Positions 4,313 through 25,891 of a stretch of 64,000 bases of DNA are shown piece after piece. The position numbers were made by a program, and so were the translations under genes. The notes below the pieces were generated by a model that was not told the DNA's origin, made no database searches, and saw only the letters and a program-made list of their open reading frames with translations. Origin of the DNA: Deltaproteobacteria bacterium (GTDB lineage Bacteria > Bdellovibrionota > Bdellovibrionia > Bdellovibrionales > JAMPXM01). The number at the start of each line of letters is the position of its first letter. The stretch's first letter is position 1. The DNA is taken from the NCBI GenBank assembly GCA_017302795.1, contig JAFLCB010000003.1, positions 26,650 through 90,649 on the forward strand, written 5' to 3'.

Positions 4313-4440
4313 AATTCCTCCTCTAGTCGTTCATGCTACCCACGGTGCCGCTAAACCACGCAACTGTTTCTTTCAAAACGCAGCGCCGCGCAGTGCATCA
4401 ATCCTGAAATTGCGGCAAGGAGTTGGGTAGAGCCTTCTCT

Positions 4441-5739
4441 ATGGAAATTAAAGACCCAATTCACGGCTCGATTGAGCTTAGCGACACGGAAGAAGCGATC
4501 CTCGAAACTCGAGAGTTCCAGCGTCTACGTCAGATCAAACAATTGGGTTTTGCCGAATACAGTTTTCCAGGTGCGTCGCATTCTCGATTCCTTCATTCGT
4601 TAGGCGTCATGCATCTCGCTGGTCGCGCCTTTGATTCCATTTTTCGCGCCTTCAAATTTTCCAACGAAGCTGCGCGAAACAGATTGCGACGAGTCGTCCG
4701 ACTTGGAGCTTTATTGCATGATATTGGCCACGGACCGTTGTCTCACACCACCGAAGAAGTCATGCCTAAGGTCGGGGCCTTAAAAATCAAGGCTTATAGT
4801 TCGCGCGAAAAAGGTGCGGCCATCGACAATGATCGCAAAGCAACTCACGAAGACTACACCATCAAGATGGTGACCGATTCGGACTTGGCGATTTGCTTGA
4901 GCAAATCGTCTACCGATATTACGGGACTTCATGTGGCCTGTTTGATTGACCGAGGACTTAAAGCGCCCGACGACTTCTTCCTCGATCAGGGGCTTGATTT
5001 TCGACCGATCCTTTCGCAGGTCGTTTCTAGTGAGATGGACGTCGATCGTATGGATTACCTCGAGCGTGATGCTTATTTTTGCGGAACAAATTACGGTCGC
5101 GTCGAATTAGAATGGCTGATTGGAAATCTGACCTTTCACGAAACACGCGGCAAGGTGCATTTGGCACTTAACCGTCGAGCCCTCTACACGTTTGACGATT
5201 TTTTAATTTCTCGTCACCACATGTACCTGATGGTCTACTTCCATCACAAAAGTATTATTTTTGAAGAAATGCTCCAGCGGTATCTGCATTCCAGCGATTG
5301 CCGATATCACTTACCGGCAGAAATACCAGAGTATCTGAGGTGCTCGGATTATTCGTTGTACGAACACTTGGCCGAACAGAAAAATGAATGGGCCAAGCGA
5401 ATCGCAGATCGCCGTCCTTACCGCATGCTGACAGAAATGCACGCCACGGAAAAAACAGCCCGGCCTAGAAAAATATGCGAAGCGCTTGAGGCGGAGGGTA
5501 TTCTTACTATTCAATCAGGCTCAGCGACGCGTCTTTCTAAGTATCACGCCACTCAAGACCAAGAGGCATTTCCCATTTTTGTGGTAGATCAGTATGACCT
5601 TCGCGAAAAACCAGTGCCGATAGAAAAGGTCACACGGGTTTTTCAAAAATATGAAGAGACTCGCATGATCGAGAGAATTTACGTTGCGCCCGAGTCTTAT
5701 AAAAAGGCGATGAAGATAGTTGCAGATCGAAAGATCTAA
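4441..5739 (+). CDS. HD-domain phosphohydrolase (SAMHD1/COG1078-like, possible dNTP triphosphohydrolase)
   Basis: Motifs HSRFLHSLGVMHLAG, LLHDIGHGPLSH and DVDRMDYLERDAYFCG. The ORF track starts at TTG 4423. ATG 4441 (MEIKDPIHGSIEL) fits the usual family N-terminus better, but the start is uncertain. Confidence 0.85.
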   Translation: MEIKDPIHGSIELSDTEEAILETREFQRLRQIKQLGFAEYSFPGASHSRFLHSLGVMHLAGRAFDSIFRAFKFSNEAARNRLRRVVRLGALLHDIGHGPLSHTTEEVMPKVGALKIKAYSSREKGAAIDNDRKATHEDYTIKMVTDSDLAICLSKSSTDITGLHVACLIDRGLKAPDDFFLDQGLDFRPILSQVVSSEMDVDRMDYLERDAYFCGTNYGRVELEWLIGNLTFHETRGKVHLALNRRALYTFDDFLISRHHMYLMVYFHHKSIIFEEMLQRYLHSSDCRYHLPAEIPEYLRCSDYSLYEHLAEQKNEWAKRIADRRPYRMLTEMHATEKTARPRKICEALEAEGILTIQSGSATRLSKYHATQDQEAFPIFVVDQYDLREKPVPIEKVTRVFQKYEETRMIERIYVAPESYKKAMKIVADRKI

Positions 5740-8211: not shown

Positions 8212-10425
8212 TTAGCTACGGAGCGACCGGAAGAAAATTTCGGCAAATTTAAGTGCTGTTTGCGGAGCGTGGGCTTTTCGCCAGACTCCTGCTGTGTACT
8301 TTGTCGCTTCAGAATAGGTTGGGTAGGGGTGAATGGTGCCTAGGATTTTCCCCAATCCCAAGCCGTGCTTCATTGCCAATGTGAACTCGGCCAACAGTTC
8401 CCCGGCGTGTGCTCCAACGATAGTTGCTCCTAAAATCTGATCAGAATTTGGCGGCGTCAAAACTTTTACGAAGCCCTCGGCCTTCGAATCCACGATCGCG
8501 CGATCGAGATCATCGAGTTCATACCTTGTGACTTCAAAGGCTATGCCTTTTTCTTTTGCCTCTCGTTCATTCAGTCCGACTCGTGCAACTTCGGGATCGG
8601 TGTAAGTGACGGCGGGGATCACTCGCTCGTCGACTTTGAAACTCCAGTACGGATCAACCAAGGCGTTGACCGACGCATACCATGCCTGATGGGCCGCCGT
8701 GTGAGTGAACTGCCACGGGCCTGCAACATCGCCACAGACAAAAATGTTCGGCATGGATGTTTGCAACGTTTCGCTGCGAGAAATAGTTCCATTCGCTTCG
8801 ATCTCAATTCCCAGCTGTTCAAGCCCAAGGCCCGAAGTGCGCGCGCGCCGACCAAGTGCCACTAAAATACTATCAAATTCTAAGCGGTCCCCATTTTCAG
8901 TGAGGGCTCGCTTTGGAGCAGCCTCTCCTTTTTGAAAGGGGCCAGGTGCTTCGAAGCGAACAATGTTCGTTTGCAGCATCACGCGAACACCATTTTTTTC
9001 TAACGACTTTTGTACGAGGCTCGAAACATCTCTATCTTCTCGGCCTAAAATCGAAGATCCGCGTTCAATCAAAGTGACTTGCGATCCAAGTCTCGAAAAT
9101 GCGAGTGCCAATTCGCAGCCAATGGGACCACCGCCTAAAACCATCATTCGCTTTGGCAGTTCAGCTAGCTGCCACAAGGTTTCGCTCGTTAAGGGACCAC
9201 AATCCCGAAGCCCTTCGATTTCAGGAACGACAGGTGCGGCTCCTGTCGCAATGACGATCGATCTCGAAGTGATAACGCGGGATTTTTTCTGCGCGTCGGT
9301 GACCTCGATCTCCCATGGAGATAAGAGCTTCGCTCGACCGGTTAGGCACTCTACCCCTAGCGCGGTGTAGCGTTCGATAGAGTCGTGAGGTTCGATCGCA
9401 CGAATTTTTTCCTGGACCATGGCCATGACTTTTTGACAGTCGACGGTTTTGGTTTTTAGATCGACGTTGATTCCGTAGGAAGAGCTTGTGTCTACATCAC
9501 GTGCGATTTTCGCAGATTGCAAAATGGCCTTGCTCGGGACGCAACCGGTATTGAGGCAATCACCGCCCATGCGATGTTCTTCAATCAGTGCCACCTTCGC
9601 TTTCGCCACGGCCCCAATGTAACTCGTCACGAGACCTGCGGCTCCTCCGCCGATCGCGATTAAATTGTAATCAAACTTTGGCGGCCGACGAAAGCCATTA
9701 AAGGCGGCGCGACGTTTGTAGATTCGAATCAACAAGCTTGCAATTAGCGGAAAAACTCCAAGTGCCACGAGGCTAGCTAGGATTGTCGGAGAAAGGACTT
9801 CTGAAGGACTGCCGAGAGTCGCAATTTGAGTTCCGGCATTCACGTAGAAAAATGTGCCGGGTAGCATTCCCAATTGGCTCACGAGCGCAAACCGCAATGT
9901 CGAGATACTGGTGAGACCCAAAACAAGATTGACGAGGAAAAACGGAAACACTGGTATCAGCCGAAGAGTGAGAAGGTAAACGATTCCTTCGCGCTTAAGA
10001 CCGTCATTGATTTTTTCCAGAGTGCCACGGAACTTGGCTTCTACGGAAGCGCGCAACAAGTAACGAGTAATCAAAAAACTAAGCGTCGCACCAAGTGTCG
10101 AAGCAAACGAGACGAGGAGTAAACCTTTTCCGAGACCAAAAATCGCTCCACCGGCAAGAGTCAAAACCGTTGCGCCAGGAATAGCCGCCGCGGTAACGAC
10201 GACGTAGGTCGCAAAATAGGTCAGGACAAAAAGCCAAGGCTGGCTTTCAGCTTGAGCCTGAAGCAGATCGCGTTTTGCTTTGAGATTTTCAAAGGTCAAT
10301 TGCGATGTGAGATCACTCGATCGAAGTGCGGCAAAAACCGCCACAAGAATTCCGCCTATGATCAGCCATTTCAACAATGACTTTGCCGTCGAGTGATTTG
10401 TTTGAATTTTCGGCGCGTTAGACAA
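8212..10425 (-). CDS. fusion of a DedA/TVP38-TMEM64 family membrane domain with an FAD-dependent pyridine-nucleotide disulfide oxidoreductase
   Basis: The N-terminal ~230 aa are multi-TM with a DedA-like LRLIPVFPFFLVNLVLG segment. The C-terminal ~480 aa carry the FAD fold IAIGGGAAGLV, the redox-active GGDCLNTGCVPSK, the NAD fold VLGGGPIGCELA and the dimerisation motif IHPYPTYSEA. TTG start at 10425 with GAGAGGA 7 nt upstream. Confidence 0.85.
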   Translation of the reverse strand: MSNAPKIQTNHSTAKSLLKWLIIGGILVAVFAALRSSDLTSQLTFENLKAKRDLLQAQAESQPWLFVLTYFATYVVVTAAAIPGATVLTLAGGAIFGLGKGLLLVSFASTLGATLSFLITRYLLRASVEAKFRGTLEKINDGLKREGIVYLLTLRLIPVFPFFLVNLVLGLTSISTLRFALVSQLGMLPGTFFYVNAGTQIATLGSPSEVLSPTILASLVALGVFPLIASLLIRIYKRRAAFNGFRRPPKFDYNLIAIGGGAAGLVTSYIGAVAKAKVALIEEHRMGGDCLNTGCVPSKAILQSAKIARDVDTSSSYGINVDLKTKTVDCQKVMAMVQEKIRAIEPHDSIERYTALGVECLTGRAKLLSPWEIEVTDAQKKSRVITSRSIVIATGAAPVVPEIEGLRDCGPLTSETLWQLAELPKRMMVLGGGPIGCELALAFSRLGSQVTLIERGSSILGREDRDVSSLVQKSLEKNGVRVMLQTNIVRFEAPGPFQKGEAAPKRALTENGDRLEFDSILVALGRRARTSGLGLEQLGIEIEANGTISRSETLQTSMPNIFVCGDVAGPWQFTHTAAHQAWYASVNALVDPYWSFKVDERVIPAVTYTDPEVARVGLNEREAKEKGIAFEVTRYELDDLDRAIVDSKAEGFVKVLTPPNSDQILGATIVGAHAGELLAEFTLAMKHGLGLGKILGTIHPYPTYSEATKYTAGVWRKAHAPQTALKFAEIFFRSLRS

Positions 10426-10535: not shown

Positions 10536-11261
10536 ATGAACTTAAATGCGGACAAAGTAGAAAAATCTTGGCAGGCAGTCCTCGGCGACGAATTTGAAAC
10601 GACCCACATGAAGGCGCTGGGCGATTTCCTTCGCTCTGAAACGGAAAATGGCCTCTCGATATTTCCAGCGGAAAAAGATGTTTTTGCCGCGTTTACCGCG
10701 ACACCCTTCGACAAGGTACGCGTCGTGATCTTGGGGCAAGATCCCTACCATGGAGCCGGGCAGGCGCACGGACTTTCGTTTTCTGTGGAGGCTGGAGTTC
10801 GTCTTCCGCCATCCTTATTGAACATCTACAAAGAGCTCGAATCAGATCTCGGAATACCGCGAGGGAAGTCCGGCAGTTTACGAGAGTGGGCCAATCAAGG
10901 AGTGCTGCTGCTTAATAGCGTGCTGACGGTGAGGGAAAATCAAGCGGCCTCTCATCAAAGACGAGGATGGGAGCAATTTACCGATCGAGCGATCAAAGAG
11001 CTTGCCGACCGCCGAGAGGGAATTGTTTTTATTCTTTGGGGTGCTTACGCACTGAAGAAAGCGGCATTTGTTGATCGGAGTAAGCACCGGGTCATTGAAT
11101 CTGTTCATCCGTCGCCACTGTCGGCATCTCGCGGTTTTTTCGGCAGCCGACCATTTTCAAAAATTAATCAGTACTTCGCGTCTCGAGCTGAACCGCCCAT
11201 CGATTGGGCGGCCCACATCCGGCAAGAAACAGAAAAAGAAAAAAACACCGTCACGGCATAG
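10536..11261 (+). CDS. ung: uracil-DNA glycosylase (family 1)
   Basis: Motifs GQDPYHGAGQAHGLSFSV and HPSPLSASRGF. There is a short K/E-rich C-terminal tail. Confidence 0.93.
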   Translation: MNLNADKVEKSWQAVLGDEFETTHMKALGDFLRSETENGLSIFPAEKDVFAAFTATPFDKVRVVILGQDPYHGAGQAHGLSFSVEAGVRLPPSLLNIYKELESDLGIPRGKSGSLREWANQGVLLLNSVLTVRENQAASHQRRGWEQFTDRAIKELADRREGIVFILWGAYALKKAAFVDRSKHRVIESVHPSPLSASRGFFGSRPFSKINQYFASRAEPPIDWAAHIRQETEKEKNTVTA

Positions 11262-11278
11262 CCGTATCCGGGCGAAAG

Positions 11279-12340
11279 CTATTTGCCCTGCGGAACGACC
11301 ACGGTTCCGTCGAATGCTTCGCCGCCCTTTGCGCCGCCAAGGTTCCGGAAGTGCAAAGTCATTCTGTCCCCTTTGCGCCAACCTCGGATGGATGCTTCCT
11401 TTTGTGCTGGGGTGAAATCAATCGTGATTTCTTTTCCATCCGTGTCGATATAAGTGATATACGCCGTGTTGCCATCGATACTGGATACGGTCGCAGGCAG
11501 TGTATAGCTTTGGGTGCCCCACCAGACATAGCCAAGTGCGCCCGTTGCTGCGGCAGACATCAGCATCATGCCGGTTTTTGTTTTTAAAAAGTTTGGCCGT
11601 GTTGAGGATTGAAGGTCGACACTGCGAATTGGTCCTACGCCTTTCGCACTCGTGATCGGCTGGCCTTGGGAAACAGCTTGTGAGGCCATTTCTGCAGAAG
11701 GTGCGGCGGCAGAAGATACTTTGCTTGCCGCGCCAAGCGGAAACCCGGTGATCGGATCAGCAGGGTTCGCCTCTGCGTATTTACGGAAGCGGCCGGGAGT
11801 TAAAAGCGACGGATTGCCAGCGCCACAACGGGGGCAGCTGACCATTGTTTGGAATGCAGAAGAGTTGCAATATTCGCAGGTCCAGTGCTTTCCGGACCGA
11901 GCATATTTCTTCGTCGCATCCCCATCGCGTGCGAGTGCTTCAGTGTAGATCAGGTGAATTCGGCCGGCGGCATCCGTAAAGTGGTCTGGCAAAATTCTTG
12001 GCTCAAGCCGATCGTCTTTGGAGTGCGGTTTTCCGCAGTTAGGACATTCCTGACTGCCATTTGCGTTGGGCCTTAACGAAACAATACGTTTTTCACCACC
12101 ATCGCGGCACTGCTTGCACTCGTACATGTGCCAAACGTCATCGCCCGGTTTTAAAATGACTTCGATTCGGCCGCTTGGAACTTTTCCGTCAGAAGGAATA
12201 ACGGTAAATGACTGATCGTCGCATTCACTTGCCGCCGCATGATTCGGTGATAGCCCGGAAGAACTGATAAACAAAAATATTCCGAACGCGAGCAATGCTT
12301 TCAGCGCAATATCGCTGAACTGGTTGAATATTTGTTTCAT
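11279..12340 (-). CDS. membrane-associated double zinc-ribbon protein, unknown function
   Basis: 353 aa. N-terminal signal/anchor ALKALLAFGIFLFISSS. There are two CxxC...CxxC units (CKQC...CPNC and CEYC...CPRC), a second hydrophobic segment GMMLMSAAATGALGYVWWG, and a ~75-aa C-terminal domain. The ATG at 12340 overlaps the upstream stop (ATGA). Confidence 0.7.
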   Translation of the reverse strand: MKQIFNQFSDIALKALLAFGIFLFISSSGLSPNHAAASECDDQSFTVIPSDGKVPSGRIEVILKPGDDVWHMYECKQCRDGGEKRIVSLRPNANGSQECPNCGKPHSKDDRLEPRILPDHFTDAAGRIHLIYTEALARDGDATKKYARSGKHWTCEYCNSSAFQTMVSCPRCGAGNPSLLTPGRFRKYAEANPADPITGFPLGAASKVSSAAAPSAEMASQAVSQGQPITSAKGVGPIRSVDLQSSTRPNFLKTKTGMMLMSAAATGALGYVWWGTQSYTLPATVSSIDGNTAYITYIDTDGKEITIDFTPAQKEASIRGWRKGDRMTLHFRNLGGAKGGEAFDGTVVVPQGK

Positions 12341-12906
12341 CGTCCACCTCCGTTAAGCATTCCGTGAGTCATAACGTGGTTTGACTGGGTTGCTCGCGAG
12401 ACGACCGGAAGAAACAGCATCCGGCGGGCCGCTCGTTTTTTATCGTCAGCAATTAAAACACTTCGGCGTTCTTTCATTGTTTTTTCAAGACGCTTGAATT
12501 CGGCCTTTGTGTTTCCTAAGAACGACGAATTCCCGGTTCCCAACGCCGCGACCAGCGGCTTGATTGCAGAATCAAAATCTTGATCAGCACCATACTCGCC
12601 GAAAAACTGAAGACGGGCAGCAAGTGCGGGGAAGACATTCTGCCTTAGAGTCTGGTCTTTCTCAGCCGCAAGGTCAGTCGCCATTGCGCCTACCAAAGCG
12701 CTTCCCGTGGTTGGCTGATCTAAACTTTCGGCAAGATCCAAGACAACCGCACTGACAAGTGTATCGGTAAGCTCTTTGTTCGAATTTCCAATGGCCTTAA
12801 GAATTTGAAGTTTGGATCTCGTCGTTGAAGCAAGCGCGAGTGCTTTTAAGTTTTCCGCGCCACCGACGAACTCAGAACTCTGCTGTTCATGCAAATCGCG
12901 AGGCAT
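12337..12906 (-). CDS. hypothetical protein (predicted helical)
   Basis: 189-aa ORF. Its ATG follows the stop of the upstream 12907-15315 gene with no gap, and its TGA overlaps the downstream ATG. I recognise no motif. Confidence 0.6.
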   Translation of the reverse strand: MPRDLHEQQSSEFVGGAENLKALALASTTRSKLQILKAIGNSNKELTDTLVSAVVLDLAESLDQPTTGSALVGAMATDLAAEKDQTLRQNVFPALAARLQFFGEYGADQDFDSAIKPLVAALGTGNSSFLGNTKAEFKRLEKTMKERRSVLIADDKKRAARRMLFLPVVSRATQSNHVMTHGMLNGGGR

Positions 12907-15315
12907 CTAAGTGACCGTCCCGGATCCTTCGCGCGAGCCGACCGCCGTTACGATAACCGTTCCAAGCTGGTACTTTCGATATATGTCATCGTTTTCTTGA
13001 ATAACTCCGCTTGAGACCATTTCAAGGCTAAACTTCTCGCCTGGAGCGGCTGCTTCCAGCGCCTTACGAAGCTCAGCGGCCCGGATTTCGAATTCGCTAG
13101 ATGACGGTTCGAAAAACGCTTCAATTTCGACGGGAACGACGGTTTTAGTTCCGCGCACATTGGACAAGGGCTTTTCTTTTTTGAGTCGCGCTAAAAATTC
13201 TTTGTAGGGGACGGTTTCGCTCGCTTCCGTTTTTCCAAGGAGGGTAAACAGATGCCGATTTCCATCGGCGACATTGCCGCCGACGAAATAAAATCTTGTT
13301 CCGTTTTCAGCTAGAATTTTTAGGATCTCACTGGAATCAAACTGATCATGTGGAACCGCCGCACGATCGTTATTTTGAAACCGATTGTTCATCACGATGA
13401 TAGTCTTATTTTTATAAAGACTAGCGATCGTCGATCCGGAGGTTAAGTTCTGGAACAAATGAAGAGGTCCTTGGTAGGCAAGATCCCAGACATCGACTTT
13501 CATTCCCAGTTTTTTTGCTAGCCCAAGCCAAGCTAAATATTCCTCTCGCTTGGTCCCACTATTGGTGACCAGCAGCCAGTTTGAGTCTTTATGGCCGCCA
13601 AAGGTTTGCGCGATGGAAAATTTAAAGCTGCGAAGCTGAATCTCTTTTTCGGATCCGTTCGAGCCAAGAGTTTTCAGCGTAGCCCCCGTATGTACATCAA
13701 TAGTTGTGTAGGGAAGGTGGTTGTCGTCGAATTTTAATTTGCCCTTAACAACGAAGCTGGCTCCCGGTGCGAGCAGCGCGATGGATTGGGCAAACGTCGA
13801 AGCGAGTGAGGTGCCATCGAAGCTGATTCCGCCTGGCAGATCTTCGGTCGCAGGACGCCACTGGCGTATCGATGTTGAAAGTGCACGAGCTTCAGCGGAA
13901 CTTATGCCGACAGCGGTTCGGGAAAGGTTTTTTACGGACCACGATACATCTACGATTTCGCCAGGACTTACGGCGTTTCGCTTTGTCTGAAGTGGTGTGA
14001 TCTCAACAGGATAGGAAATGACTAACGTCTTTGGCAGCTGAAGGCCGCGCGGCGTGCGATCAATACGCGTGATTCTTCCAATTGGTACAATCGCTTCCGA
14101 AAGCGCAAGGCGATTTTCTGAAACAGGAAGTTGGTTATCGCGAATTCTGAATCGGAATACTTTCCCCAATGTTGTCGAAGATCGACCGTTCACAGCGGGG
14201 ATTTCGAGTTCGATAGGTTCCGCTGTGATCCAGTTCGAAGCACCTAACGAAAGAAGCGCTTTTGCCTTCCCAGGAATCCAAGGCATATCGCTTTGATTTT
14301 GAACCACGAGATCGGTCACCTCAACAACTTCGCCCGGCTCAAAGACGCCGTTCGCATTTGACTCTCGAAACGAGAAGGAAGTGAGGCGTAGGTCTATGGT
14401 GTCTCGGTAAATCGTAGTTCCGGTAGGTCCACTGACGACGAACTGATAGCTTCCTTTTCCGCCATTGCTTCCGCCAGTGATCGTGCCGCGCCCAGTGGAT
14501 CCGTCGCTGCCATCTGGTCCATCACTAGCGCCAGGCCGACTCTCGTTTCGAGTATCGTCCGTACAATCACCTTTTACGACACGAGAAGAACCATTGCCGT
14601 TGTCTTCAAAGCTATCGGGTGCGCAGGTTTGGGTTCCAGTTTTTTCCGTCCAAGAGGCGCCACTCCCGCCGCGTCCACCGTCGCCGCCTTCGCCTCCGCG
14701 ACCGTTGTATCCTGGGTCGCCGCCTCGGCCGCCTTCAACTTCAAAACCGACAAGCATTGAGAGGTGAAGATCTTCTGCCGCAAGTTTCACGGTGATTTTT
14801 CCACCGGTTCCGCCATCAGACCCGCGTGTTCCGCCTCCGCCGTTGCCGCCGTCTTCGCCACGGCCACCACTTGTCGCCGCTGAGTATTGACTAGCGTCGC
14901 TTCCGCTCGATCCGTCACTTCCATCGCGACCGTCGGCTCCGCGCCCTCCGTTTCCACCGCGCCCGCCATTGGCGCGAAGGTGGAGTGAAACATTCGGAGA
15001 AATTTCGAGACCATCTTGGACACCGCGATTTCCGACAGTTCCAACAATTTGCATGATCGCTTTTCCGCCGCGATCGAGGTCAGATAACGACAATGAAATG
15101 TCTTTGCCGTCTTCTCCGGCCGTCGAAGCTGTGGCACTTCTTCCGCTCCAGCTTTCTCGACTTCCATCACTGCCGTCGCGCCCGGAAGAGTCGTATGAAG
15201 CAGCGTAACTGGAAAATGATTGCGAGAGGATTGAGGTCGCGACAGAAGCCGCGACGATGCCAGTAAGCCATACCTGATGTCGCGCACGGTTCGGGCGTTT
15301 CTTCGTGTTTGTCAC
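12907..15315 (-). CDS. large secreted glycine-rich protein with Ig/CARDB-like repeats and an unknown C-terminal domain
   Basis: The ORF track begins at TTG 15387. I prefer GTG 15315 (GGAGA 5 nt upstream). That start gives the signal-like VTNTKKRPNRARHQVWLTGIVAASVATSILSQSFSSYAAS. About 240 aa of G-[RDNSE]-G low complexity follow (GGRGGNGGRGADGRDGSDGSSGSD, GGRGEDGGNGGGGTRGSDGGTGG, GGRGGDPGYNGRGGEGGDGGRGG). Next come PGE..V...V.N-type beta-sandwich motifs (FEPGEVVEVTDLVVQNQS, VSPGEIVDVSWSVKNLS), then a ~230-aa C-terminal domain (NWLLVTNSGTKREEYLAWLGLAKKLGMKVDVWDL...). Confidence 0.75.
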   Translation of the reverse strand: MTNTKKRPNRARHQVWLTGIVAASVATSILSQSFSSYAASYDSSGRDGSDGSRESWSGRSATASTAGEDGKDISLSLSDLDRGGKAIMQIVGTVGNRGVQDGLEISPNVSLHLRANGGRGGNGGRGADGRDGSDGSSGSDASQYSAATSGGRGEDGGNGGGGTRGSDGGTGGKITVKLAAEDLHLSMLVGFEVEGGRGGDPGYNGRGGEGGDGGRGGSGASWTEKTGTQTCAPDSFEDNGNGSSRVVKGDCTDDTRNESRPGASDGPDGSDGSTGRGTITGGSNGGKGSYQFVVSGPTGTTIYRDTIDLRLTSFSFRESNANGVFEPGEVVEVTDLVVQNQSDMPWIPGKAKALLSLGASNWITAEPIELEIPAVNGRSSTTLGKVFRFRIRDNQLPVSENRLALSEAIVPIGRITRIDRTPRGLQLPKTLVISYPVEITPLQTKRNAVSPGEIVDVSWSVKNLSRTAVGISSAEARALSTSIRQWRPATEDLPGGISFDGTSLASTFAQSIALLAPGASFVVKGKLKFDDNHLPYTTIDVHTGATLKTLGSNGSEKEIQLRSFKFSIAQTFGGHKDSNWLLVTNSGTKREEYLAWLGLAKKLGMKVDVWDLAYQGPLHLFQNLTSGSTIASLYKNKTIIVMNNRFQNNDRAAVPHDQFDSSEILKILAENGTRFYFVGGNVADGNRHLFTLLGKTEASETVPYKEFLARLKKEKPLSNVRGTKTVVPVEIEAFFEPSSSEFEIRAAELRKALEAAAPGEKFSLEMVSSGVIQENDDIYRKYQLGTVIVTAVGSREGSGTVT

Positions 15316-15695
15316 AGAGCTCTCCGTCAAAAAAATGAACGCGTTTGTTGCCGCGATGCCATAAGGCCGCCTGTAGCAGATAGGCAAAGTTCGTTCCCGG
15401 ATTGTAAGGCCTAGCGGGTTGTCGAACTCTTAGACGATGCTTGTACAGGGGTGAGTAAGATTGCACGTCAAAGGGACTGACGAGCAATCGACCTGGCATG
15501 CTCGCCCCGGCCTAAGCCGGCGAATGTCATTCATCAGCGTCGTTCGGCAGTGGAAACAAGCCGGAAACTGTGACTTGCGCGGCTGTGCAACACGTCAATT
15601 AGAGTGCTGGCTTTGACGAGAGTTGAATCATTGAGACAAATTTAGCCTCTGCAGGTAAGCGGGCTGGCAATTAACAAATGCGGGAGGATTTTCGC

Positions 15696-21736: not shown

Positions 21737-22769
21737 CCGTCTACCGCGTAAGAAGATCGATAAATCGTTCTACCGACAGGTCGAGCCGAATCAAACAATT
21801 GTCATCTATGATCGCCGGCTTCCCGAACATGTTCCCGGATTTAGCCAGTGGCTTCTTCAATTTCCTTACGTCTTTGCCGTTCGGTCAGGAGAGTCGCTAA
21901 AGTCCGTCGAAGCATTCAATGGTTTTCTTTCTAAAGTGCATCGCAAAGTAGGTGGGCATGCAAACCCAAGTTGGACAGTTCTCGCCATTGGCGGAGGATC
22001 CGTTGGAGATTTCGCCGGATTTTTTGCCTCCGTTTACAAGCGCGGCTTGAAACTTGTGCATTTACCAACGACGTGGCTTGCGGCTCTGGATTCCAGCCAC
22101 GGCGGAAAAACCGGGCTTAACTTTCAAGGGGCAAAAAATCAAATTGGTACTTTCTATCCGGCTGACGCAACCGTCATGGTTCGTTCCGTATTGATGGCCT
22201 TGCCGCAAAAGCATTTGCTAGACGCCCTCGGCGAACTACTTAAAATCGCGATCATCGATGGCAGCCCATGGGTAAAAAAAATGCGCTTAGACCGCGGTTC
22301 AGCTTCGGCGCTAGCTCGTGAAGTTTGGAAATTTCTAAAGCCCGCCGTCGAAGCCAAATTGAAAGTTGTGAGGCGAGATCCGCTAGAAAAAACCGGCGAA
22401 CGTCACCGCCTGAATCTCGGTCATACCTTCGGTCACGTCATTGAAGGAGCAACTGGCACTTCTCACGGAATCAGTGTTTGGCTGGGACTCCAGTTTGCGA
22501 TTGAGCTAAGTCTAGAAGAAGGCATTCTAAATCCAAAGCGCGGAGCTGAGCTTCTTACGTGGCTTGCGAAACAAAGTGCTATGGGATTGGTGCAAAGACC
22601 GCGGCTGAAAAGGCAAACTGCTAGAAGGTTAATTAAGACGGACAAGAAACGAACTGGTTCCGATAAAGTTCGATTTGTCTTCGTGAAAGGGCTGGGACAA
22701 ACCGAAGTGCGGGAAATTTCGATCGAAAGATTACTGTTGGCGGCCAAAGAAAATGGATGGTTTCGATGA
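21711..22769 (+). CDS. aroB: 3-dehydroquinate synthase
   Basis: GGGSVGDFAGFFASVYKRGLKLVHLPTTWLAALDSSHGGKTGLNF and LNLGHTFGH motifs. The 5' end overlaps the ATPase gene by 26 nt, and the 3' end overlaps the next ORF. Confidence 0.9.
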   Translation: MESVRLYLDRLPRKKIDKSFYRQVEPNQTIVIYDRRLPEHVPGFSQWLLQFPYVFAVRSGESLKSVEAFNGFLSKVHRKVGGHANPSWTVLAIGGGSVGDFAGFFASVYKRGLKLVHLPTTWLAALDSSHGGKTGLNFQGAKNQIGTFYPADATVMVRSVLMALPQKHLLDALGELLKIAIIDGSPWVKKMRLDRGSASALAREVWKFLKPAVEAKLKVVRRDPLEKTGERHRLNLGHTFGHVIEGATGTSHGISVWLGLQFAIELSLEEGILNPKRGAELLTWLAKQSAMGLVQRPRLKRQTARRLIKTDKKRTGSDKVRFVFVKGLGQTEVREISIERLLLAAKENGWFR

Positions 22770-25700
22770 TTCGTGTGCAGCGGCCGTTTTATTTTAGGGG
22801 CCGTATTCCACTTTCAAAATCGTGGCTTAATCGTGCCCTCATTTTAAAATCGATCCACAATCAAATTCGAATACTCGATTGGGAGCCGTCCGAACTTGAT
22901 GGCGAAGACGTTCTAGCACTGGATCACGCACTGAAAGATCTGGCGGCAGGAAAGACGGATTTCTTTATCGCCGAGAGTGGAACTGGCTTACGTTTTCTAT
23001 TGGCCAGACTATCGATTTTAAACGGTCAATTCAGTGTACGCGGAACGGAAAAGCTTTTATCTCGACCGCTCGACGAGCTCGTCCGCATCCTCGACCTTCT
23101 TGGCTGTAAAATTGAAAAGAAGTCATCGACCGAACTTTCGGTTTCAGCATCAGGATGGCCAGACAAGGCCCTTTCATTGAAAGTCGCAAGTGGTGAAACC
23201 AGTCAATTTTTATCCGCACTTTTGCTAGCGGCATCGCACCGAAGTCCCGGTCAAGGCGTTGAGCCGATTGAAATACTAGAACCAGAAGACCCCGTTTCTG
23301 CCGGCTATATTGAAATGACAAAAGACCTCGTCGATCAAGTTGCAGTGAAAGGCCGACGGGTGCTGGTGCCGGAGGTGGATGCAAGTTCAGCGGCGACGCT
23401 TGGTGCACTTGTCATCGCTGGAAATCGTGCAGAAAATATAGATTTTGTTCGAACCGAACTAGGCTTTTTTAAGGATCAGGTTGAAAAAACAAAACAGCCC
23501 GATCGAGTTTTTTTCGAGTTCGTACGGGATTTTCTCACCTCTGATTCAAGACGTGAGTTTAATTTGAAGTCTGCGCCAGATTTATTTCCAATTATGTCGG
23601 CGCTTGGTGCGCTCCAACCGAACGGGGTTCGCTTGGCGGGGGCCCCTCACCTTCGACTCAAAGAGTCCGATCGAATTTCAGAAATTGTAAAGCTCCTTCG
23701 TTTGATTGGAATTTCCGTCGAAGAATATCCTGACGGAATTGAAACAAAGTCGGTTTCTGCCGAGTTGCGATCTGAGTGGCGTCGCAGAACCGAGCTAGCG
23801 TTTCCCTACATATATCAACCGCCGGCTGACCATCGACTGGCATTCGCGGCGACAGTGCTTTCTGCGGCCGGCGTCCCGATAGAACTTGTCGGCCGAGGAA
23901 TGGTTGCGAAAAGCTTTCCGACATTCTGGTCGATCGTAGAAGGTGATGGGCCTAAAGTGGCGCTTCTTGGACATCGTGGAACAGGAAAGACAGAAGCCTC
24001 TCGTCGGTGGGCACACTTGTTGGGTGCGCGAGCAACAGCAGTCGATCTTGATCGCGAGATTGAAAGGCTATGCGGTCGCTCGGTGCGGGAGCTTTTCGAA
24101 AAAGATGGCGAAGGTGAGTTTCGATTCTATGAAAAAAAAGCGTTTGGCGAAATGGACGAAGAGAGTCGACGCCGAGTTGGCGCCTTTCTGGTCGCCTGCG
24201 GAGCTGGTTTTGACGCTTCACGGATCGATCAATCCTGGCAGAAAATTTGGTTGCGCCGAGCGACCGATGAGGATGGGCGAGTGTTTTTTGGTCGCCCGCG
24301 ACTAGATCCCGATATTTCCCCTATAGAAGAATCGAAAAAAAGGTACTTCGAGCGCACGGCGAAATATGCGTTGGCTTCCAATCGGATTTTCGATCTTGCA
24401 GAAGGCGATGGTGATCCGTCCGAGCAGTTCTGGGTTCGTGACTTGTTTGATGAAGATTCTCTCTCGGGCCTCGGCGGAACAATTTCTTTAATTCCAGAAA
24501 TGCATTTGGGATCAGCTATGGAGCGCTATTTGCGCTGGGGCGTCGCGAGAATGGAAGTTCGCGACGATTTTTTCCCACACGATCAGTTCGGACTTGTCTG
24601 GGCCAGGATCAATGAATTGGTTAAGGATCTGCCTACGAATCGAATAATCGTAAGCTTCAGAAATCCGTTAGAAACCGATCGGACAATAACGTTTCTCGAA
24701 GGCGTCATTCAGCAAGAAGGTTTCGGCGGGATCACAGTCGATTGGCCATTCGAAATCACAAAAGAACTTCCGGCGCGTTTGAAATCGATAATTCGCCATC
24801 CCAAGGTAGACTTTATCGCTAGCTGGCACGGGGACTTCGGAAATCTTGAATTGGATAAGTTTATCGAACTCGAAAGGTCGCTGTTTAAAGATTTTAGCTT
24901 GGAACAAAGTCGACCGAAAGTCGCGATGAAGCTTGCGGCCACAATCAATAGTTTTGACGAACTTCAAATTCTCCACGCGTGGGTGCGCCAGTCCACCGGC
25001 TCCAGAGTGCTGTTGCCAATGTCGAAATCTGGAAGTCGTGCACGTTGGTCGTGGTACCGACTTCTTAGAGGTTCAAGAGTCCCAATGGGCCTCTCGTTTT
25101 GGCGCGATGGGAATGGAACTTCAGTGGATCAACCAACTTTTTCTCAATGGTGGCGTCGCGAACGCTTTGCAGATGTTAATCGATTCGCAGCTGTGTTGGG
25201 CGATCCGGTTCATCATTCACGTACTCCGCTCGAGCACGACTCATTTTTCACTTCGCTCGGTATGCCAGTTTTCGCTATTCAAATTTCAAGAGAGGAAGCA
25301 GAAACGGCGCTCCCTTTTCTTGCGGATCTAGGCCTTGTGGCAGCTGCAGTGACGTCGCCATTGAAGGAATTGGTATGTAAACACCTAAATGTTTCTATGA
25401 CAGTATGCGCTTCCGGCACCGCCGCCAATAATGTCTCTGGTAATGCGGTCAACACTTTGGTTCGTAGCGAAAGCGGCTGGTTAGCGACAGCGACCGATGA
25501 ACCGGGCTTTCGAGCATTATGGACCGAAGCAAAACAGTCTTTTTCGCAAATTAACTTTTCGAGTTCTACAGTTCTATGGGGCGGTGGCGGAATAAAGCAG
25601 TCCGTTTTAAATGTCGTTCCACATGCGATTCCGATTCGCGCTTCCCTCGGCCCGGCGGTTAGCGAGGTAGCGATTCAGCCAGAGATTGTCATCTGGGCGT

Positions 25701-25891
25701 CCGGCAAAGATCGCGGCGAATGGCACTCCTCGTGGAAACCAAAGTTAGTTTTGGATTTGTCCTACACAGATGATTCTGCTGCAAGAACGCTGGCGGTTGA
25801 AATCGGCGCCAAGTATATTTCGGGCTTGTCAATGTTTCGTGCCCAGGCGCAAGGGCAGCGGGAATTCTGGAGCTCACGGTTAATTCAGTAA
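22757..25891 (+). CDS. tetrafunctional shikimate-pathway fusion: EPSP synthase / shikimate kinase / type I 3-dehydroquinate dehydratase-like / shikimate dehydrogenase
   Basis: Single 1044-codon ORF. AroA-like region, aa ~1-396 (nt 22757-23944): LNRALIL, ESGTGLRFL, SGETSQFLSALLLAA, KESDRISE, DHRLAFA. AroK-like region, aa ~399-560 (23951-24436): LLGHRGTGKT, DLDREIE. AroD type I-like region, aa ~575-790 (24479-25126): MEVRDD, IVSFRNP, ASWHGDF, AMKLAA, MSKSGSRARWSW. AroE-like region, aa ~808-1044 (25178-25888): LGDPVHHSRTPLEHD, AVTSPLK, TDEPGF, WGGGGIKQS, GLSMFRAQAQGQREFW. An alternative start at ATG 22766 gives an ATGA overlap with aroB. Confidence 0.85.
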   Translation: MVSMIRVQRPFYFRGRIPLSKSWLNRALILKSIHNQIRILDWEPSELDGEDVLALDHALKDLAAGKTDFFIAESGTGLRFLLARLSILNGQFSVRGTEKLLSRPLDELVRILDLLGCKIEKKSSTELSVSASGWPDKALSLKVASGETSQFLSALLLAASHRSPGQGVEPIEILEPEDPVSAGYIEMTKDLVDQVAVKGRRVLVPEVDASSAATLGALVIAGNRAENIDFVRTELGFFKDQVEKTKQPDRVFFEFVRDFLTSDSRREFNLKSAPDLFPIMSALGALQPNGVRLAGAPHLRLKESDRISEIVKLLRLIGISVEEYPDGIETKSVSAELRSEWRRRTELAFPYIYQPPADHRLAFAATVLSAAGVPIELVGRGMVAKSFPTFWSIVEGDGPKVALLGHRGTGKTEASRRWAHLLGARATAVDLDREIERLCGRSVRELFEKDGEGEFRFYEKKAFGEMDEESRRRVGAFLVACGAGFDASRIDQSWQKIWLRRATDEDGRVFFGRPRLDPDISPIEESKKRYFERTAKYALASNRIFDLAEGDGDPSEQFWVRDLFDEDSLSGLGGTISLIPEMHLGSAMERYLRWGVARMEVRDDFFPHDQFGLVWARINELVKDLPTNRIIVSFRNPLETDRTITFLEGVIQQEGFGGITVDWPFEITKELPARLKSIIRHPKVDFIASWHGDFGNLELDKFIELERSLFKDFSLEQSRPKVAMKLAATINSFDELQILHAWVRQSTGSRVLLPMSKSGSRARWSWYRLLRGSRVPMGLSFWRDGNGTSVDQPTFSQWWRRERFADVNRFAAVLGDPVHHSRTPLEHDSFFTSLGMPVFAIQISREEAETALPFLADLGLVAAAVTSPLKELVCKHLNVSMTVCASGTAANNVSGNAVNTLVRSESGWLATATDEPGFRALWTEAKQSFSQINFSSSTVLWGGGGIKQSVLNVVPHAIPIRASLGPAVSEVAIQPEIVIWASGKDRGEWHSSWKPKLVLDLSYTDDSAARTLAVEIGAKYISGLSMFRAQAQGQREFWSSRLIQ

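Follow-up and report, generated by a model that had tools for sequence, protein, structure and literature searches.

Glycine-rich sequences that fold as polyproline-II/polyglycine-II bundles have been described in the snow-flea antifreeze protein, the N-terminal domain of Obg, the gp38 adhesin of phage S16, the glycine-rich domain of ALK/LTK, and acetophenone carboxylase (bioRxiv 10.1101/2023.11.25.568672). The Pfam family DUF7932 (PF25560) is catalogued as well, and our literature search found no paper mentioning it and no relevant paper on Bdellovibrio. Here we analyze a locus on the minus strand (11279..15387) of a 64,000-nucleotide stretch of DNA, hereafter the window, from a Deltaproteobacteria bacterium assigned to the Bdellovibrionales (GenBank assembly GCA_017302795.1, contig JAFLCB010000003.1, positions 26,650 to 90,649), which codes for a giant Gly-rich protein of the DUF7932 family. 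A first-pass annotation had read this locus as an operon of three translationally coupled genes. Our overall explanation, which we consider probable, is a module of two genes, one for the giant and one for a membrane partner protein; that there are two genes, that the giant has been split by a recent premature stop codon, and that its domains are laid out as described below are conclusions in which we have high confidence.

The three co-oriented minus-strand open reading frames (ORFs) of the first-pass annotation, here genes 1, 2, and 3, are present in the ORF list of the window (12907..15387, 12337..12906, and 11279..12340), and so are both junctions between them: the TAG of gene 1 (12909-12907) is followed without a gap by an ATG (12906-12904), and genes 2 and 3 overlap in an ATGA (12340-12337), with GGAGGTG preceding the start of gene 3. 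The likely start of gene 1 is GTG at 15315, because GGAG lies ahead of it and the ortholog P0005 begins at the same residue, which yields a product of 802 amino acids (aa) (12910..15315); the ORF is open back to TTG at 15387 (826 aa). Few proteins came back when the part of gene 1 outside the repeats was used as query, and in two of them the C-terminus of gene 1 continues into the sequence of gene 2. The most informative relative is contig L005, 97.6% identical to the window over 12.2 kb, which carries only two genes, a 992-aa giant and a 353-aa gene 3 that overlap in the same ATGA. Its giant is P0005, which alignment-based search placed at 99% protein identity and which reads ...SGTVTWMPRDLHEQ... 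as one chain of 992 aa. In the DNA alignment the window has ACT TAG ATG and L005 has ACT TGG ATG, a single G-to-A difference in a Trp codon. The helical tail (gene 2, 189 aa, 12337..12906) is likewise joined to the remainder of the protein in P0002, P0003, and P0005-P0014, of which the other close homologs (P0006-P0013) are all single proteins of 963-1,075 aa, and the giants of the more distant loci L001, L009, and L010 are also single proteins, so that no intact homolog inspected, down to 27% identity, has genes 1 and 2 apart. When residues 566-992 of the intact protein were modelled with AlphaFold, they formed a compact unit (predicted template modelling score, pTM, 0.80) in which a beta-strand crosses the junction and the tail helices lie packed against the preceding alpha/beta domain.

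As read from these alignments, the boundary between genes 1 and 2 is a G-to-A nonsense change that turned Trp803 into TAG (12907..12909), and the ATG at 12906 is an internal methionine of the ancestral protein rather than a designed stop-start junction; the gene 2 ORF begins at the codon after the TAG because that codon happens to be Met. In comparison with L005, the ratio of nonsynonymous to synonymous substitution rates (dN/dS) is 0.22 across the gene 1 part and 0.09 across the gene 2 part, gene 3 stands at 0.14, and neighboring genes lie at 0.00-0.22; since values of 0.09-0.22 indicate purifying selection, the stop should be recent. Reassignment or readthrough of the stop codon was considered and dropped, for TAG is an ordinary stop in the window, where it closes 9 of 40 long ORFs, and recoding is not needed as an explanation. 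If the tail encoded by gene 2 is translated at all, it would lack a signal peptide and remain in the cytoplasm, leaving the two halves in different compartments, and with its tail stranded in this way the module is probably impaired in this strain.

The giant starts with a Sec-type signal peptide (aa 1-38, 15202..15315), read heuristically from the sequence as the first-pass annotation had also seen it, with a strongly positive n-region, a 16-residue hydrophobic core VWLTGIVAASVATSIL, and then ..SYA/AS; equivalent N-termini are found in all close homologs. It is followed by a Gly-rich N-terminal module (aa 39-296, 14428..15201), delimited by Gly periodicity, AlphaFold, and alignment, in which beta segments are interleaved with three G-x-x runs of eight triplets each (aa 117-140, 150-173, and 196-219), after which comes a hairpin with Cys231 and Cys251. 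Residues 65-320 of the gene 1 ORF consist of 27% Gly and include 5 Pro in 256 aa, and the autocorrelation of Gly peaks at lags 3 (0.58), 6 (0.43), and 9 (0.39), compared with about 0.25 at other lags. In the full-length AlphaFold model (mean predicted local distance difference test, pLDDT, 75.8) the Gly runs within residues 39-296 are modelled confidently, at pLDDT 80-92 and with block means of 73-92, and receive neither helix nor strand assignment. Periodicity and model together suggest that the module is probably built of polyglycine-II-type helices packed on beta-sheets. As a side observation, the same coding region contains long alternative-frame ORFs (14787..15287 on the minus strand, 14465..14767 and 14969..15208 on the plus strand), owing to its GGN-rich codons, and the public gene call P0001 from a relative starts in such a wrong frame and later switches to the true one, which suggests a frameshift or an assembly error there.

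The Ig-like region noted in the first-pass annotation turned out to match Pfam DUF7932 with 49.8 bits (E 6e-13, gathering threshold 27 bits) over residues 332-459 of the 826-aa ORF. It forms the first of two Ig-like beta-sandwiches (aa 308-435, 14011..14394), and the second (aa 436-568, 13612..14010) is, like the first, all-beta in the AlphaFold model. The C-terminal domain that had been left without a fold is predicted, by the AlphaFold models and an alignment consensus, to be an alpha/beta domain of flavodoxin-like fold, extended by a beta-sheet (aa 575-802, 12910..13593); in the model of the intact protein the two sandwiches occupy residues 289-568, the alpha/beta domain with its added sheet 580-800, and helices 808-968. 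All PDB matches of the whole model in Foldseek were tandem beta-sandwich proteins (factor XIII, alpha-2-macroglobulin, integrin alpha, arrestins, and PAD4). With the C-terminal model the best hits were flavodoxin folds of the DJ-1/YajL type, at a Foldseek probability of up to 0.87 and a target TM-score of about 0.3, and nothing in the PDB reached E <0.01 (best 0.02). In nine diverse members, Pfam matched nothing in the alpha/beta domain even with E relaxed to 10, and an alignment of 128 sequences contains no invariant Cys, His, or Ser in it; these results point to what may be a non-catalytic module. The beta-alpha-beta pattern had by eye resembled a TIR domain, a candidate given up since no TIR appeared among the top 50 Foldseek hits, Pfam gave no match, and there is no conserved catalytic Glu. 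Searches of NCBIfam, PADLOC, and PDB sequences with the giant were empty, for NCBIfam and PDB also when profiles were used, so that the statement of the first-pass annotation that no function could be assigned held up throughout the Pfam, NCBIfam, PADLOC, PDB, and Foldseek searches, in which no characterised homolog was found.

To assess the extent of the family, 1.84 billion representative proteins were searched in full with a HMMER profile; 1,184 clusters (50% identity) scored E 1e-3 or better, and 307 scored E 1e-30 or better. Most members are 950-1,200 aa long and follow the query in collinear order, with up to all 751 profile positions aligned in many of those near 1,000 aa, and 127 of the 159 proteins collected (nearly all from the profile search) measure 900-1,300 aa; DUF7932 scores in homologs rise to 180 bits. 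Conserved throughout the 128-sequence alignment are the start of the Gly-rich module, (I/L)D(V/A)SGxxGxDG, with nearly invariant Gly columns, the DUF7932 motif NxDGIxEPGExV...NxGGMPTP, and, in the alpha/beta domain, LLVxNxxTxRxExxAW...VWDxS...GKTIxxLNN. Named bacterial members come from metagenome-assembled genomes (MAGs) of Bdellovibrionales/Bdellovibrionaceae, from Pseudobdellovibrionaceae, Myxococcales/Myxococcota, Planctomycetota, and Endozoicomonas, and fungal members from Xylaria, Hypoxylon, Xylographa, and the Glomeromycota Acaulospora and Rhizophagus; 20 further metagenome loci resemble intron-bearing fungal genes. A full-length member of 1,137 aa in the giant virus Terrestrivirus (BFVD A0A3G4ZNF8, Foldseek E 2.6e-36) points to transfer across kingdoms, and a scan of IMG/VR for the giant found nothing. 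A signal-like N-terminus was recognized by a simple hydropathy rule in 67 of the 159 proteins, and many full-length members are without one. The hairpin Cys pair is present in 25 of 63 forms with a signal and in 8 of 52 others, an odds ratio of 3.6 (p 0.007) that ignores phylogeny; this enrichment and the signal-like N-termini across the clade speak for export. The giant is a new member of a catalogued, wholly uncharacterised family.

Some fungal members depart from this layout. The Glomeromycota proteins P0070, P0144, and P0145 (Acaulospora colombiana, Rhizophagus clarus) are 1,600-1,900 aa long, P0070 and P0144 with two or three tandem Gly-rich/Ig-like modules and P0145 with N-terminal tetratricopeptide repeats fused to it. 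In the fungal P0015, P0077, and P0090, a longer Cys-rich insert (e.g., PGACKCHGGQGNCAGCDSKP) replaces the two-Cys hairpin (aligned residues 220-264), and this insert may be a metal site.

Turning to the second gene of the module, the 353-aa partner (gene 3, 11279..12340) overlaps the stop of the giant in the ATGA already mentioned, and every relative of the partner with a readable context lies directly downstream of a DUF7932 giant. Giant and partner adjoin in L001-L003, L005, L007-L010, L012, and L019, that is, in all Bdellovibrionales loci examined, and they do so in three different neighborhoods: beside dpp and ung genes (L005, L007/L012, and L019), beside a Fic-domain protein and rimP-nusA-infB (L001, L008, and L009), and beside genes with Big and CBS domains (L010). 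The linkage that the first-pass annotation read as one of three genes is supported for the giant and gene 3. A different gene order, with an extra third component, occurs in L015 (2636..8027; CAZFMF010000019.1, a Pseudobdellovibrionaceae MAG), where three overlapping plus-strand genes encode a 409-aa protein resembling gene 3, a 303-aa signal-bearing protein without a Pfam match, and a 1,085-aa DUF7932 giant. The 409-aa protein, two genes upstream of the giant, has a hydrophobic N-terminus, two Cys4 pairs, a linker, a second hydrophobic segment preceded by SRRQVL, and a C-terminal domain. In a second Bdellovibrionales clade, represented by L001 (3920..9220), L008, and L009, a protein of about 1,766 aa lies directly upstream of the giant and has weak matches to cytidylyltransferase-like, PNP_UDP phosphorylase, and Fic domains. 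No partner-like neighbor stands beside the giants of Myxococcales, Endozoicomonas, or Planctomycetota, those of L006 and L018, or the fungal ones, and the partner-less giants of the Myxococcales, L018, and L006 loci have no neighbors in common. The pairing of giant and partner is real but limited to one lineage.

The partner family, as defined by profile search, has 13 members, and those with a source name are all from Bdellovibrionales or Deltaproteobacteria; P0160, whose label is "MAG: Deltaproteobacteria bacterium," matches the protein of the window with 100% identity, and a metagenome scan for gene 3 found nothing. The order of its parts, examined in an alignment of 11 sequences for the cysteines and in 12 proteins for topology rules, is a signal-like N-terminus, two Cys4 pairs, a low-complexity linker, a hydrophobic segment, and a C-terminal domain, which agrees with the two CxxC..CxxC pairs between two hydrophobic segments noted at first pass. 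Sequence and hydropathy mark a signal-peptide-like segment at the N-terminus (aa 1-38, ..HAAA/SE, 12227..12340). The first knuckle pair (C75/C78/C99/C102, YxCxxC...QxCxxCxxPH, 12023..12124) and the second (C155/C158/C169/C172, CxxCxSSxF...CxxCGA, 11816..11884) are both invariant in the 11 sequences. The second hydrophobic segment is Gly/Ala-rich with a mean hydropathy of 1.2-1.9 and has TRPNFLKTK ahead of it (aa 256-275, 11516..11575), and the small C-terminal domain, probably beta-rich, is conserved in the alignment with the motifs WRxG and NxxGxKGxE (aa 280-353, 11282..11503). This last domain has no Pfam or PDB relative, and a likeness to DUF3592 was dropped when Pfam gave no match at E up to 1. 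Sequence does not distinguish between metal coordination and disulfide formation by the eight cysteines, and the zinc ribbon is a putative one. The N-terminal segment is cleavable-Sec-like, with a short h-region and an AxA-like site, in 11 of 12 partners, by which the Cys domains would be periplasmic. Conversely, the net charge flanking the second segment is, in 12 of 12, +1 to +4 over the 15 preceding residues and -3 to +1 over the 15 that follow, and by the positive-inside rule the Cys domains would then be cytoplasmic and the C-terminal domain external; in the L015 protein, seven consecutive Lys behind the first segment also argue for cytoplasmic Cys domains. The region before the second segment resembles a degenerate Tat motif (TRPNFLK in the window, SRRPLK, and SRRQVL; RR in 3 of 12), and an internal Tat signal of the form S/T-R-R-x-F-L-K was dropped as a candidate, the motif being both internal and degenerate. 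PADLOC gave no match for the giant or gene 2 and only a chance-level one (0.049) to Cas12f for gene 3. The partner is a Bdellovibrionales-specific addition to the family, and we found no earlier description of it.

What the module does can be proposed in outline only. It is possible, and we put it forward tentatively from sequence features, that the giant is an exported, non-enzymatic scaffold or binding protein of the envelope that is tethered or controlled by its partner; the Sec-type signal makes an envelope location plausible. The Gly-rich module would then be the working surface and the Ig-like pair a spacer, and the alpha/beta domain with its helical end would couple to the membrane partner, which would tether or regulate the giant. 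A bolder version, on which we are doubtful, would see here an unrecognised polyglycine-II-type domain class, in a family spread across predatory and aquatic bacteria, fungi, and giant viruses, whose Bdellovibrionales members are exported and coupled to a Cys8 membrane protein with a ribbon-like domain that may face the periplasm, the whole amounting to a new envelope system, possibly one for contact with prey. Several points weigh against the explanation favored here. Many members, the fungal ones among them, have no signal peptide, and since many of these are full-length, the core function of the family is not tied to export and is not envelope-specific. The giant occurs without a partner outside the Bdellovibrionales, and the topology of the partner is, by the simple rules applied to its sequence, internally inconsistent. 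The polyglycine-II fold is itself deduced from Gly periodicity and from confidently modelled regions without secondary-structure assignment, and the scaffold or tether role only from domain types and gene adjacency, there being no characterised homolog to lean on. The locus may also be prone to decay or assembly error, given the broken copies in GCA_041442895.1 and L008 described below. At present the giant is an uncharacterised family member and not a demonstrated new system.

Among the alternatives, the one that survives best concerns the stop codon itself, which could stem from an error of sequencing or consensus calling, or represent a minority variant of the MAG, in an organism that makes the intact 992-aa giant. 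It is a matter of a single base, the window corresponds to a MAG, as the identity of gene 3 to P0160 indicates, and both halves of the giant are under purifying selection. The window shares this base, however, with a second assembly, the Logan one of run SRR13786854, whose contig L019 matches it at 100% identity over 10 kb and has the same TAG. The TAG is not specific to one assembler, but because these assemblies probably share the same reads, the NCBI-derived window and L019 together are weak independent evidence for it. On balance we consider an error or variant unlikely, and the nonsense change in the two-gene module our preferred explanation.

A further alternative takes the stop at face value and supposes that the module is dispensable and decaying in this lineage, on its way to a pseudogene without current function. 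Besides the nonsense mutation of the window, it can draw on GCA_041442895.1, a relative in which the giant is called in pieces of 413 and 468 aa and gene 3 in fragments of 62 and 96 aa, on the start of P0001 in a wrong frame, and on L008 (3848..7004, a Bdellovibrionales MAG), where the giant is called as 996 aa and its last 49 aa form a separate ORF just before gene 3. This broken C-terminus is a second case of its kind, either real or an assembly error. Against it, fragmentation in MAGs can come from misassembly, especially in GGN-rich repeats, gene 3 is intact in the window, both genes are intact in other lineages, and dN/dS of 0.09-0.22 is similar to that of the housekeeping neighbors. We judge such decay quite unlikely, and about equally so an alternative of another sort, in which the giant is an enzyme or a conflict effector (toxin or defence) and the partner its regulator or immunity protein. 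The patchy spread across kingdoms and the multi-copy, modular Glomeromycota versions are typical of conflict genes, and the alpha/beta domain is weakly DJ-1/PfpI-like. Yet it has no conserved nucleophile and no Pfam or PDB relative, the neighborhoods are housekeeping ones rather than defence islands, the partner is missing from most lineages, and PADLOC gave no match; a known defence system was rejected on the empty PADLOC result. Least probable, and to our mind very improbable, is that TAG-ATG is a functional stop-restart in a genuine coupled operon of three proteins, as the first-pass annotation had proposed, for although the three ORFs exist as described, recur in the same arrangement in L019, and include a gene 2 part under purifying selection (dN/dS 0.09), the relative with 97.6% identity has TGG and a single ORF, all intact homologs inspected are fused, the junction falls inside a predicted beta-strand of one compact unit, gene 2 lacks the signal peptide that gene 1 has, and the low dN/dS was measured against a lineage with an intact gene and so reflects history before the mutation. 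We retain, therefore, the module of giant and partner.

Regarding the surroundings, 13 nucleotides past the stop of the partner there is a terminator-like hairpin with a T-run (11245..11266), which is suggestive by position only, as hairpins of this kind are no more frequent in the region than expected by chance. The module adjoins dppA and ung, and further genes around it encode a dppABCDF-type ABC (ATP-binding cassette) transporter, an EPSP synthase/shikimate kinase/dehydrogenase fusion, a DedA-oxidoreductase fusion, and MaoC and HD-domain proteins. The guanine-plus-cytosine (GC) content around the locus is flat and the same flanks recur in relatives, so the patch that had been described as accessory-looking is a housekeeping one; of the neighbors named in that description, ung and the DedA fusion are there, whereas no HNH domain was found among the neighbor proteins scanned. 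The nuclease-like neighbor is an HD-domain protein with an HD-associated region (4423..5739, plus strand). The DedA protein (8212..10425, minus strand) has 737 aa, combines a DedA/VTT membrane domain and a complete pyridine-nucleotide-disulfide oxidoreductase in one chain, and is kept beside ung in relatives. The shikimate protein (22667..25891, plus strand) joins EPSP synthase, shikimate kinase, and shikimate dehydrogenase domains in 1,074 aa, and its counterpart in GCA_041442895.1 has 1,029 aa.

The locus is of interest in several respects. It is an annotation trap, in that a stop directly before an ATG mimicked translational coupling where in fact a gene undivided in relatives has newly acquired a nonsense mutation. 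It belongs to a large family, of more than 1,000 clusters at 50% identity, that bacteria, fungi, and a giant virus have in common and that comes with no functional information. If the fold is confirmed, the Gly-triplet module would join a very short list of natural polyglycine-II bundle domains, and the strict pairing with a Cys8 membrane protein in Bdellovibrionales offers an experimental handle in a predatory bacterium.

Comparison with described systems places the module as follows. RTX proteins (reviewed in PMC3034196) resemble the giant in being large and exported with Gly- and Asp-rich repeats, but they carry a C-terminal type I signal where the giant has an N-terminal one of Sec type. 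A regular-expression search for the RTX nonapeptide GGxGxDxUx in the giant gave 0 matches, its four GGxGxD hexamers all lack the hydrophobic position, and the dppA and ung genes next to the module are not accompanied by the type I secretion genes (ABC, MFP, and TolC) that define RTX loci; with neither nonapeptides nor a type I signal or genes, an RTX identity was rejected. Collagen-like proteins also have G-x-x periodicity, and the fungal homolog P0144 is labelled "collagen-like protein" by its source, but the runs of the giant reach 8 triplets at most, are broken by beta segments, and come with the 5 Pro in 256 aa noted above. Collagen identity was likewise rejected, as the runs are too short and Pfam Collagen (PF01391) had no match at E up to 10 in six family N-termini. 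The first-pass annotation was thus right in taking the Gly repeats for neither RTX nor collagen. The DJ-1/PfpI/class I GATase fold has a three-layer alpha/beta architecture in common with the C-terminal domain of the giant, and the top Foldseek hits are the DJ-1 proteins of S. pombe and human and YajL of E. coli; however, E values are 0.02-0.3 at a TM-score of about 0.3, the nucleophile Cys/His is not conserved in the giant, and there is no Pfam match. For the partner, the nearest relatives in form are double zinc-ribbon proteins (Pfam DZR PF12773 and Zn_ribbon), with which it has two CxxC...CxxC pairs at zinc-ribbon spacing in common, though all Pfam scores fall below gathering (DZR 10-20 bits against a cut-off of 27.3) and its Cys pairs, unlike those of usual zinc ribbons, lie between a signal-like and a second hydrophobic segment.

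There remain the polyglycine-II bundles and DUF7932 itself. The bundles have in common with the giant a Gly at every third residue and short runs amid beta-strands, and on the predicted model the Gly-rich module resembles the designs of gp38 and ALK, but there is no sequence relationship to the bundles. To Obg the motif GGxGGxIxVxxxxDxxLLML is locally similar, yet Pfam GTP1_OBG recognized an Obg control at 1.5e-65 while leaving the six family N-termini searched unmatched up to E 10, hhalign gave a probability of 10% over 26 columns, and hmmsearch gave 3 bits. Homology to the Obg fold was rejected on these three results, and the likeness is a structural analogy only. With DUF7932 proteins such as those of Rhizophagus clarus (A0A2Z6R152) and Terrestrivirus (A0A3G4ZNF8), on the other hand, the giant has its whole architecture in common, from the Gly-rich module to the helical tail. 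Pfam models only one domain of this architecture; the copy in the window differs from other family members in being split by a stop codon, and those of the Bdellovibrionales differ from the rest of the family in adding a Sec signal and a dedicated membrane partner.

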